Assembly (NCBI GenBank): GCA_963674745.2
Contig: CAXXDV010000003.1
Location: 1,216,001 to 1,280,000, forward strand
Length of the DNA: 64,000 nucleotides
DNA from: Desulfosudaceae bacterium
GTDB taxonomy: Bacteria > Desulfobacterota > Desulfobacteria > Desulfobacterales > Desulfosudaceae
Direction: 5' to 3'
Part shown: positions 39,353 to 42,300 of the stretch, one piece after another
How the letters are laid out: each line of letters opens with the position of its first letter
How positions within the stretch are numbered: position 1 is the first letter of the stretch
Notes under the pieces: generated by a model
The model's database searches: none
What the model was told of the DNA's origin: nothing
What the model saw: the letters and a program-made list of their open reading frames with translations, nothing else
Made by a program: the position numbers and the translations under genes

Positions 39353-42300
39353 TCAAGCCGCCATCCGCGTGGATTGCTCGGTTAAGGGATTAAAAGGTGA
39401 CAGGGAGCTCTGAGGCCCAATGACAGGTATGGCAGGGATGACGGGTGTCTGGCCGGCGCCGCTCATGACGGAACCGCTTTGAATCTGAGCGGGTGTGGCG
39501 GATGACAGATTGTTAATCTGTTGCTGTAGATCAGCGGCGCTGTTGCCGAGTTGACTGGATGCGGCATTGACCGCGGCCGCTGTTTCGTCCACCGTGCTTT
39601 GCAGTTTTTTTACAGCGTCGGTGGCCATGGCCTGGGCCTTGCGGGTGCCATTGACAATGTTATCCCATTTATTCGGATCGGTCAGAAACGTCTTGAGCAG
39701 ATCCGGGTCGATATGCTTGGCGATATTGGTGTCACCCATCGTGAACCCTGTCCCGAGGAATTTTTCGGCAAACTGGGCGAGTTCGGGACCGACCTCGTTC
39801 GCCAGAAGCATGGCTTTATAGGCCGGGTCCACCGTTTCCGTAATCAGGCTTTTGTCCAGCAGTGCGTTCATTAATCTTCTGGCCTCTTCCGGACTGACCT
39901 TGGCGATGCTGCCGCCTTCCACGGCAACATAACGGAAGCTGCCATCAGGCAGGGTTTCCTTGATCAGGTTGCCGGAATGCGCGTCACCGAACACGACGCC
40001 TTTCTTGGCGGCATTGTTGTAAAATTCCAGGGCCTCGATCTGTTCCTGGCGTGTCAGCACCCGCCCTGTCCCGGCACGGCTGTCCAGGATGTCCTGGAGG
40101 GTCTGCTGGTTGGCGGCGAATTTGTCCTTTATGATGACGTTGGATCCGGCTTCCTTTGCCGGTATATGGGGAATATCAGCCTCCCGGAGGGTTTTTAACC
40201 CCGCCACTTCATCATCGAACCTGAATTTTTCGGTAAACACCTTGGCCACCCTGTCATCACCGACATCAATGACTTTGCCGGCAATACCCTTGCCGAGGAC
40301 TTCTCCGTTTTTGAGTTGTTCTCGCAGTGCCGGGGTCAGATCCAGGTCCGTCGGCGGCGGCGGCGCCTTGCTCAATTCATCCAGTTGCGCCGCCCTGTTC
40401 CTGACGGCCTCGTCGAGTTTGTCGGAGAGCTGCTTGACGGCCTGCTGATTGGCGGCCACGGCCTCATCAAAGGCACCGCCGGTTTTTTGCAGCGCCTCCC
40501 GGGCGGCGGCCAGGGCATCATCCACCTGCTGGCCTGCGATCTGCCCGCTTTGCCGGGCCGCTTCCAGCCGGGCAATATCGGCTTCCAGCAGGGCCCGCTG
40601 CTGAATGGCATTGGCGGTAGCCACGGCCGTTTTCTGCGAGGTCACAATTTGTCTGCCGATATCATCAATGTATGCCTGAAGCTTGGCCAATGGTTTTGTC
40701 CCAGCAGCGGCTTTAGCCCCATTCAGAGCGGTGCCCGAGGTGGCAATGGTCAGGATGATGTTGTTCATGGCCTTGCCGGCCTCGTCCATTTTTCCCCAGA
40801 GCTCATTGATGCGATTGGCGATTTCAATGGCCTTGACATTGTCTTGTGTGGAACCGCCCAAGCGAAGCTGTTCGTCCATGAGAGACTCAATCTCCTTGAG
40901 TACGTCGGTTTTGGAATGAACGAGTTTGGCGACATCCTCTCCCAGGGCTTCAAAGATGGCCGGTACCAGGTTGCCGGGATTCAGCACGTTCGCTATGGCG
41001 TCCATTTTCGCCATCACCTCGTGCAGCGGCTGGTTAACGACACCGTCATATACGCCGCCGGCGATACCGCCGACAACGGAACTGTAGCGGTCAGCGAGAG
41101 TGACGCCGGCCGTTGCCAGGCTGTCGGCAACGGAATTGCCGGCGGCGATGCTCTCAAGGACCGAATCAAGGCCGGTGGGTTGCAGCAGCCACAGGCACCA
41201 GGATCCGGACCAGTTGAGCCAGGAGCCGTTTTCCACTTCAAAGGCCAGTCGGGCTGCTTCGGCCAGGGCTTCGGCGGTTTTGCGGTCCTGCTCCACCTGT
41301 CTGATGCCGTCGATTTTCAGGCGCAGCGGCAAGATCTGGTGTAAGGGGGCGGGGATGGTAATATTATCGATCGGGATCTGTTCCTTTTTCGGTTCGGGCA
41401 GTTTCAGGCTCATGCCCGGAAGCGCCCAGGCCGCCCCCCGATCCTGCCGGCCGTCGGCAAAGGTAATTGTGTAATCCATACTGGTGGTCGGTCCCATTCC
41501 CAGGCAGTGCTCAAATTTTCCGGAGGCGAACATGTCGGCCAGGGCGGTCTGCCCCTGACCGAGCGTTTCCCGGATTTTTAAAAGCGCGTTAAAGCCGTCA
41601 TCGAGTTGCCGGTTGCGTTCGGCAAGCTTTTCCTTTATCGCAGGCAGACCGGCTTCGAGCCGGCGCCGGGCATCGGCGTGTTCATTATATATACGTTTCT
41701 GATCCGCCCGTAATTGATTCAGCAGGGCCACACGTTTCTGATCAAAAACAGCCGCGGTCGGGGCGATGCCATGACCGAGGGACAACGGGATACCCGTTTC
41801 TCCCATGCGATAGCTGTCATATCTTTGCTGATCCGCCGCGGACATGACCAGATCGTTGACCATGGCGGTCTGGACCAGCCTGGCATAATCCTGGCTGAGT
41901 TTTATGATCGGGGCCGAATCATAGAAGTCCTTGATATCCTGCAGGGCAGCCTGCCAGAGATCGGCGTAGGCGGACTGCTGATCAAAATACTGCTGGGGTA
42001 TTTCCAGGATGCGGTTCATGAGGCCGACAGGGGCGTCACAGGGAATCTGGATCTGCTTTTCGCGGGCCTGAATCTGCTGCAACAGATCGCCACAATCTTC
42101 GCTGATGCGGACCGGCACATCCGGGGTGTCTCTGGGTGCGTTCTGTTGGACGATCTCTTCCGGAGCGGGCTGTTGCACAATAACAATTTCATTCTGATCG
42201 TTGAGCCGGGCCATGCCTTTCTGCTGAAAGGAAGCCGCTTCGATGCAGACGGTTTTATCCGGATGGCTGGCGGCCGCAGCGTCCGCTTCTGCGGCGCTGA

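Follow-up and report, generated by a model that had tools for sequence, protein, structure and literature searches.

In a 64,000-nucleotide stretch of the genome of a Desulfosudaceae bacterium (GenBank assembly GCA_963674745.2, contig CAXXDV010000003.1, positions 1,216,001 to 1,280,000; hereafter called the window), we found a gene, P0001, encoding a giant protein of 1372 amino acids which, judging from a predicted signal peptide, is very probably exported and which almost certainly adopts a kinase fold at residues 1035-1273. The domain is protein-kinase-like and minimal, of the RIO/Bud32/NleH type, with two lobes and without an activation segment. P0001 belongs to a rare, unnamed protein family, and its gene heads a conserved four-gene cassette. 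The last two genes of the cassette, P0003 and P0004, make up a pair that is found in many Gram-negative lineages next to giant exported proteins of unrelated kinds. We favour the explanation that P0001 is an exported giant protein with a kinase-like enzyme domain, encoded in this four-gene cassette together with its envelope partners, and give this explanation as a whole a probability of about 0.5. All positions below are window positions unless a locus is named, and all features of the cassette lie on the minus strand.

Motifs, fold and kinship of the kinase-like domain

The domain (39653-40369) is backed by an AlphaFold2 model, structure searches and the family profile. The first-pass annotation of this DNA had placed an atypical protein-kinase-like domain at 39850-40310; the domain indeed lies there, but its true span is wider. 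A position look-up recovered every motif string that had been quoted in the P0001 open reading frame (ORF), namely the Gly-rich loop GKGIAGKV (residues 1060-1067; 40271-40294), VAK with the β3 lysine Lys1077 (40241-40249), FDDE with the helix-C glutamate Glu1088 (40208-40219), the catalytic loop FGDAHSGN with Asp1163 and Asn1168 (39968-39991), and VAVEGG (39911-39928), of which Glu1185 occupies the metal-binding position of the DFG aspartate according to both the model and the alignments. Across 10 full-length homologues (30-87% identity) G1060, G1062, K1077, D1163, G1167, N1168, E1185 and G1187 are invariant and E1088 is nearly so. A regular expression for the ordered motifs matched P0001 once, none of 5000 shuffled versions of P0001, and one of the 79 stop-to-stop frames of at least 150 amino acids in the window; together with the invariance in homologues, this excludes chance as the source of the motif set.

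The AlphaFold2 model of residues 1035-1273, based on an alignment of 5 rows, reached a mean predicted local distance difference test score (pLDDT) of 78.8 and a predicted template modelling score (pTM) of 0.78. It begins with three strands with the Gly-rich loop, helix C, more strands and a helix, after which a strand, the catalytic loop, two further strands, the EGG motif and a helical C-lobe follow in the order typical of kinases. E1088 falls in model helix 48-63 (domain numbering) and Glu1185 comes after the second strand past the catalytic loop. Foldseek returned at least 500 matches in the PDB at E ≤ 0.001, all of kinase fold among the matches listed, with PRPK (6wqx, E = 3e-6) as the best, followed by RIOK1, WaaP and Rio2. 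VIA-align, which works independently of Foldseek and was run against 48,161 chains, scored Rio1 (11.8), Rio2 (11.5), Bud32 (11.4) and WaaP (10.5) highest, and the effector kinases NleH1 (143 residues aligned of a chain of 160) and OspG at 9.4 each and HopBF1 at 8.9; its best 50 matches were all kinase-fold by title, and a VIA-align recheck of the Foldseek matches likewise left kinases only. Among the matches listed from a viral structure library, almost all were kinases or kinase-bearing polyproteins. The protein-kinase-like fold proposed from the bare sequence is thus borne out by the structure searches with the model. From the PKL (protein-kinase-like) superfamily's feature set the domain possesses the two-lobed fold, the Gly-rich loop, the β3 Lys, the helix-C Glu and D-x4-N, and lacks the DFG Asp, for which Glu1185 is substituted with retention of the carboxylate.

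Nearest in fold are RIO and Bud32, and nearest in sequence is NleH. A profile of 11 rows including distant relatives (A5) matched, among PDB sequences, NleH1 (E = 1.5e-4), NleH2 (1.1e-3) and 4o96 (2.1e-3), and then KSR2, TBK1, YabT and B-Raf, with the Gly-loop/Lys region and the catalytic loop as the aligned parts; as a profile match, that to NleH1 shows distant kinship only. A profile of the kinase-like domains of 9 homologues (A4) returned LKB1 (E = 0.017), and the single sequence and a 5-row profile gave matches at chance level only (the LIMK1 Gly-loop, E = 1.9). The catalytic loop had also been likened to that of ABC1 kinases; this resemblance is real but sub-threshold, as Pfam ABC1 (PF03109) scored 12.9 bits on the P0001 domain (E = 0.06) against a gathering cut-off of 22.9 bits. 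PF03109 was, below threshold, the sole recurrent Pfam match in the family (5 of 11 members, best E 7.6e-4). Pfam OspG_kinase (PF22303) was not listed for the P0001 domain at E ≤ 10 or for the 11 members at E ≤ 1, and no RIO1 or Bud32-type Pfam match was obtained for either. The nearest clusters of a protein language model were the OspG family, ABC1, Kdo and RIO1, at 0.93-0.96. In a weak hhalign alignment with the genome's own UbiB (probability 5.9%), D-x-x-x-G-N fell on HADPHPGN and [E/D]-G-G on I-D-Y-G.

Glutamate at the metal position and rarity of the family

The catalytic Asp and Asn are each present in all of 33 distinct domain copies. Because the metal position holds Glu in 25 of these copies and Asp in 7, these from deeper relatives, and the single Thr, in the first copy of P0015, seems misaligned by one (the Glu of its GETGG sits one residue off), the carboxylate at the metal site is, as the alignments read, never lost in the family. 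At the β3 position, 21 of 27 aligned domain copies have Lys and 2 have Arg. Asp-type relatives came from metagenomes and carry ADTDG (second cassette of locus L007), FDSGG (L012), FDTGN (L014, L016), LDLDG (L015) or IDTGG (L018). HMMER and MAFFT agree in aligning Glu1185 with the Asp of those relatives, and the UbiB alignment sets it on the Asp of IDYG; by alignment, Glu1185 is the homologue of the DFG Asp, as had been noticed in the first reading. A claim on the polarity of the Glu/Asp change was dropped, since the domain tree of 27 rows, which left out most Asp-type rows (fewer than 150 aligned residues), had an unresolved backbone, long branches and at least two wrongly labelled rows.

A profile searched exhaustively against 1.84 billion representative proteins yielded 13 matches at E ≤ 0.001, 12 of them true; the remaining one, P0020, was rejected as a repeat artefact. 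The true matches measure 277-2108 residues, the shortest (P0014, 277 residues) beginning inside the domain and two (P0015 and P0016) having two domain copies each, and the public names of family members are either absent or 'hypothetical protein'. Searches for the domain and protein found neither in 60 relatives (2 of the same genus, 10 of the same family and 48 of the same order), nor did a sample of 400 genomes of the phylum contain a match. When genome contigs were searched with the alignment of the giant proteins, 127 pattern matches appeared and none was confirmed.

Giant protein, four-gene cassette and P0003-P0004 pair

The P0001 gene (39353-43471), taken from the ORF list with its translation and backed by the full-length homologues, is preceded by a Shine-Dalgarno sequence, GAGGAG (43479-43484), 7 nucleotides ahead of the ATG at 43471, and its open frame of 1377 codons reaches just 5 codons above that ATG. 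By hydropathy and reading, residues 1-33 (43373-43471) form a predicted signal peptide with a Lys-rich start, a hydrophobic core and ..IQA followed by QD. In 19-residue windows it is the only part of P0001 with a hydropathy above 1.6 (1.67), the value taken as the approximate level of a membrane helix. Signal-peptide-like N-termini occur throughout the homologues, their sequence not being conserved. The earlier description of the protein as secreted agrees with this N-terminus, and similar ones were read from the sequences of the three downstream genes. Cys364, Cys460 and Cys656 are invariant.

Outside the kinase-like domain, a conserved Gly/Tyr/Trp-rich N-terminal region (residues 71-400; 42272-43261) stands out by the many columns with an invariant G, W, Y, D or P (30-89% identity) and has no Pfam family. 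Alignments of the homologues further revealed a family signature, SGKFEHCLG (residues 650-658; 41498-41524), with an invariant His-Cys. In the 10 full-length homologues there is no variation at S650, G651, E654, H655, C656, L657 and G658; HCLG is invariant in all 18 aligning members of the extended family, distant two-protein variants included (a 19th row did not align), the Glu preceding it is kept in 16 of the 18, and a nearby LPGM is mostly kept, with variants. The His-Cys may serve as an active site or, in a structural role, as a disulfide partner. The part of P0001 most widely common in the family is residues 457-724. P0001 ends in Ala-Ala (39356-39361). By comparison of giant-protein ends, the last two residues are AA in 11 of 15 distinct four-gene-type proteins (P0005-P0013; loci L007, L011, L012) and fit [AV]A in 13 of the 15, with the 40 residues ahead poorly conserved; this end could be a C-terminal sorting or protease-recognition signal.

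The domain had been described as inserted between coiled coils. Its flanks are Ala/Gln-rich (17% Ala in residues 761-1034, and likewise in 1274-1372) and give weak matches to the helical families ApoLp-III, Mod_r, ATG17 and SMC, but these matches are all sub-threshold. The Gly/Ala-rich strings SVVGGIAGGVYDGVV (residues 798-812) and IILTIATSGTALNGAKAAAG (residues 905-924), which had been likened to pre-toxin or translocation regions, have a 19-residue hydropathy of 0.78 and 1.09, below the membrane-helix level, and no Pfam pre-toxin or translocation domain was found. Pfam and NCBIfam assigned no family to P0001, P0002, P0003 or P0004; for P0001 and P0004, the Pfam matches at E ≤ 1 did not rise above chance level. 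The sole PADLOC match was a 17.9-bit LeoC in the C-terminal helical tail, an Rfam scan of the window returned nothing, and promoter and terminator counts were close to the shuffled expectation.

The second gene, P0002 (38325-39356), is translated into 343 amino acids from a TTG, with an ATG 7 codons further in, and its homologues occupy the same position in 6 metagenome loci. It encodes a conserved N-terminal helix (ETP.SF..RK.S.YKAG), Pro-rich linkers and a C-terminal β-rich domain, again without a Pfam family, and it is this helix and this domain that are conserved; the middle linker is a PEPTPPAPEPEPPA-type repeat in the window and a poly-Ser tract in several homologues (L005, L006, L007 and L010 compared). 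P0003 (37765-38271; 168 amino acids), a small conserved partner, and P0004 (35582-37768; 728 amino acids) both have predicted signal peptides, so that signal-peptide-like ends are read at the start of all four proteins. The start of P0004 overlaps the end of P0003 by 4 nucleotides, and the three downstream genes are tightly spaced on the same strand as P0001. The order giant protein, P0002-like, P0003-like, P0004-like was found in 8 cassettes on 7 metagenome loci. Where the identity of the giant proteins is 33-35%, that of P0003 is 49-65% and that of P0004 43-55%. Two diverged cassettes stand in tandem at L007:7898-21934 and L012:1718-17486; in the second L007 copy the kinase-like domain is more divergent and of the Asp type. 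At L014, L016 and L018 two proteins of about 900-1000 amino acids take the place of the giant protein. Elsewhere in the window, at 22372-26036 and 26751-29201, there is a CbiM/CbiQ/ABC-ATPase metal-uptake cluster with a DUF4198 protein ahead of it, which holds a small protein with weak, below-cut-off Ig-like matches and is followed by an FGE-sulfatase-like gene beside a HEAT-repeat protein.

Scanning one genome per species, we found relatives of P0004 at 53 genome loci, which belong to Gamma-, Alpha-, Beta- and Zetaproteobacteria and to Desulfobacterales, Syntrophorhabdaceae, Smithellaceae and Victivallales. A P0003 relative lies immediately upstream in 24 of the 33 loci with room for one. P0001-like proteins occur at just 4 of the 53 loci (L042, L043, L046, L066), the other large exported neighbours being mostly unrelated. 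Among 26 such neighbouring large proteins scanned with Pfam, 18 had no family above cut-off, and the others contained Anthrax_toxA (2; L022, L055), Big_9/cadherin (1; L056), HYR (2; L058, L060) or Big_1 (3; L064, L067, L068). The Anthrax_toxA segments (L022:5420-9385 and L055:4632-8081; 78 and 94 bits) come from a gammaproteobacterial metagenome-assembled genome (MAG) and a Halioglobus MAG, and about 75 residues of the L055 segment resemble edema factor (E = 7.8e-27, the best match), CyaA and ExoY in the PDB. Cyclases of the edema-factor/ExoY class are reported to be inactive in bacteria and active in the host cytosol (PMC9223806); the L022 and L055 proteins would give this class a Sec-signal context. 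The window's own genome has one copy of the pair, and 1 of the 60 relatives has one.

Another gammaproteobacterial cargo family (L026, L027, L033, L036, L040, and also L030, L039, L041, L059, L062) shares a Cys-rich C-terminal domain, HYHG..NCNG...CG.G...SSCPDL, in the last 60 residues or so; the P0003 homologue follows directly, without a P0002-like gene of its own in between. This Cys-rich domain might meet the P0003/P0004 pair. A kinship of that cargo family with the P0001 family was considered and rejected (hhalign probability 1.6%, no relation).

No P0003-P0004 fusion was seen among 43 and 59 ORFs positive with the respective hidden Markov models, and neither protein, as a single sequence or as a profile, gave a meaningful match to PDB sequences. 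All 27 proteins listed in the P0004 profile search, the window's own included, are unnamed or 'hypothetical protein' and without a Pfam domain. P0004 has no membrane helix (hydropathy maximum 1.05) and contains 9 strand-like alternating segments, compared with 4.3 +/- 1.9 in shuffled sequences; its language-model neighbours are the PEP-CTERM-associated outer-membrane family TIGR03016 (0.90) and Porin_4 (0.84). Our guess, which we think somewhat more probable than its opposite, is that P0004 is an outer-membrane barrel.

Competing explanations and known systems

In the explanation that we favour, the kinase-like domain would bind nucleotide and catalyse, either as a phosphotransferase or, like RIO and Bud32, as an ATPase. 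Nucleotide binding with probable catalysis is suggested by the strict selection on every residue in contact with ATP and metal and by the carboxylate that all copies retain at the metal site, and on this sequence evidence the domain is probably a nucleotide-dependent enzyme; the structural kinship with RIO/Bud32 suggests an ATPase, or else a kinase that has no activation loop. P0003 and P0004 would handle the giant protein in the envelope, and it seems rather likely that they export it across, or anchor it at, the outer membrane. As ATP is not available in the periplasm of the producer, the domain would work only after reaching an ATP-containing compartment of another cell. That P0001 acts in a foreign cell is speculative and on balance doubtful, the only hint being, by analogy, the cyclase-like cargo of the sister loci. 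A bolder version, to which we give little credence, would make P0003 and P0004 the conserved core of an undescribed Sec-dependent export system of Gram-negative bacteria, unrelated to Omp85/TpsB, that brings diverse giant proteins to the cell surface or beyond it, with some cargo (the P0001 family and the proteins of L022 and L055) needing foreign ATP; P0001 would then be a new kind of effector of free-living anaerobes, whose targets might for instance be protists that graze on them or bacteria nearby, and the Glu of its RIO/NleH-like kinase would hold the metal.

Several observations weigh against the favoured explanation. Arg replaces the β3 Lys (VVRV, IIRQ) in the Asp-type relatives L012:12770-13492, L014:11600-12292 and L016:2410-3102, so that part of the wider family may be non-catalytic. 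Only one of the five AlphaFold models was confident (78.8 against 50-57), and its alignment of 5 rows is shallow. We know of no ATP source in the periplasm. The named homologues trace to MAGs of Syntrophorhabdaceae, Smithellaceae, Victivallales and Rhizobiaceae, and the label of one metagenome contig is bioreactor; none of these sources points to an obvious host. The genes flanking the cassette vary by locus and are of housekeeping type, and the scan of window genes revealed, in or beside the cassette, neither a translocation domain nor a secretion ATPase nor an injection system. For P0004, no family or structure match backs a barrel, the strand-alternation signal is modest, and the kinship with TIGR03016 was not borne out (hhalign probability 0.4%).

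The main rival, which we hold to be rather unlikely, makes the domain a pseudokinase scaffold, that is a binding or conformational module in an envelope or surface protein which transfers no phosphate, with P0003 and P0004 just anchoring or assembling that protein. Such a scaffold would suit a location without ATP, the adhesin-like giant proteins (Big_9/cadherin, HYR, Big_1) that accompany the same gene pair elsewhere, the Arg found for the β3 Lys in some relatives, and the bulk of P0001, which is helical and β-rich, non-enzymatic-looking and of no known family. It would suit the Glu as well: in a report on titin kinase (PMC12862963), this kinase has EFG, the swap is taken as a pseudokinase mark, the change of Asp to Glu 'drastically reduces' canonical kinase activity, and a minority of titin orthologues retain Asp. 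Against a scaffold speak the retention of the catalytic Asp and Asn in 33/33 copies and of the metal-site carboxylate in 32/33 as aligned, the 33rd having its Glu one residue off, since in pseudokinases more than one catalytic residue is usually gone. In the 10 full-length homologues, moreover, Gly-rich loop and Lys do not vary.

The first-pass annotation had suggested, as one option beside an effector, a polymorphic toxin, in which a conserved delivery body would carry a swappable C-terminal toxin and be accompanied by a cognate immunity protein, as in contact-dependent inhibition (CDI) or Rhs systems. P0001 is large and exported, cassettes are duplicated in tandem at L007 and L012, and the spread is patchy, with the domain in none of the 60 relatives and none of the 400 phylum genomes. 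However, conservation does not set the domain apart from the body (27-92% identity across the family, against 30-89% for the N-terminal region), and the domain is present in every relative examined, including an L012 protein that was at first without a match. It does not form the C-terminal tip, since about 100 more residues follow it, and the expected homologues with the same N-terminal part and different C-terminal domains did not appear among the 12 true matches in 1.84 billion representatives. The downstream genes include no immunity-like gene; unlike immunity genes, all of them have a signal peptide and are conserved across cargo types. No Pfam pre-toxin, Rhs, two-partner secretion (TPS) or DUF637-type domain was found in P0001. 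Because the kinase-like domain is constant and there is no swappable tip, this interpretation is unsupported and we regard it as extremely improbable. Hardly more credible is an ordinary cytoplasmic or membrane-anchored kinase, whose hydrophobic N-terminus would stay uncleaved with the domain facing the cytoplasm. The assignment of the signal peptide does rest on reading the sequence, but the Lys residues ahead of the hydrophobic core place the N-terminus inside and the remainder outside, no second hydrophobic segment would return the chain, the same type of N-terminus is present in all family members and the three downstream genes, and the conserved Cys residues fit an oxidising compartment.

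The closest known systems each differ from P0001. RIO kinases and Bud32/PRPK are atypical minimal kinases that are mainly ATPases; they exist as separate proteins in the cytoplasm and bind metal with Asp, whereas the P0001 domain is embedded in an exported protein of 1372 amino acids and has Glu. The loop of the P0001 family, F-G-D-P/A-N/H-S-G-N, resembles HADPHPGN of UbiB/ABC1 (ADCK) proteins, but the UbiB-specific N-terminal extension was not seen in P0001, and context and location differ. With titin kinase the family shares a conserved Glu at the DFG-Asp position and Asp in a minority (here 25 to 7); titin kinase differs in its bulky AxK residue and autoinhibitory tail, the VAK of P0001 being canonical and family and organism being unrelated. 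In effector kinases of the NleH/OspG/HopBF1 type the metal-binding motif is reported to be PID, with Asp (PMC8386410). In contrast to P0001 with its VEGG, these kinases are small, lack a Sec signal, and are type III substrates of host-associated bacteria; no type III or injection-system genes were present among the window genes scanned, the whole genome not having been searched for type III genes.

For the export side, an analogy is two-partner secretion (type Vb), in which a TpsA exoprotein is paired with a TpsB barrel. As there, a giant Sec-dependent protein is encoded with a dedicated large envelope protein, and the cargo is variable and the partner conserved. The differences are that Pfam finds no TPS domain in P0001 and no POTRA, ShlB or Omp85 in P0004, that the P0001 cassette has an extra conserved partner of 168 amino acids, and that the P0004 barrel is only a candidate.

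Kinase-fold enzymes are regarded as residents of the cytoplasm, or else as effectors for whose injection dedicated machines exist. Searches of open-access full texts found descriptions neither of an exported kinase-like domain of this sort nor of an ExoY-like cyclase with a signal peptide. In P0001, a free-living anaerobe has a complete minimal kinase core within a giant protein that is Sec-exported. Should the domain be active, the RIO/Bud32/NleH branch would gain a family with Glu as its metal-site residue, together with a natural Glu/Asp series within one family in which the swap could be studied, and if the P0003-P0004 pair exports or anchors its giant proteins, it would be a candidate secretion route that does not yet have a name.

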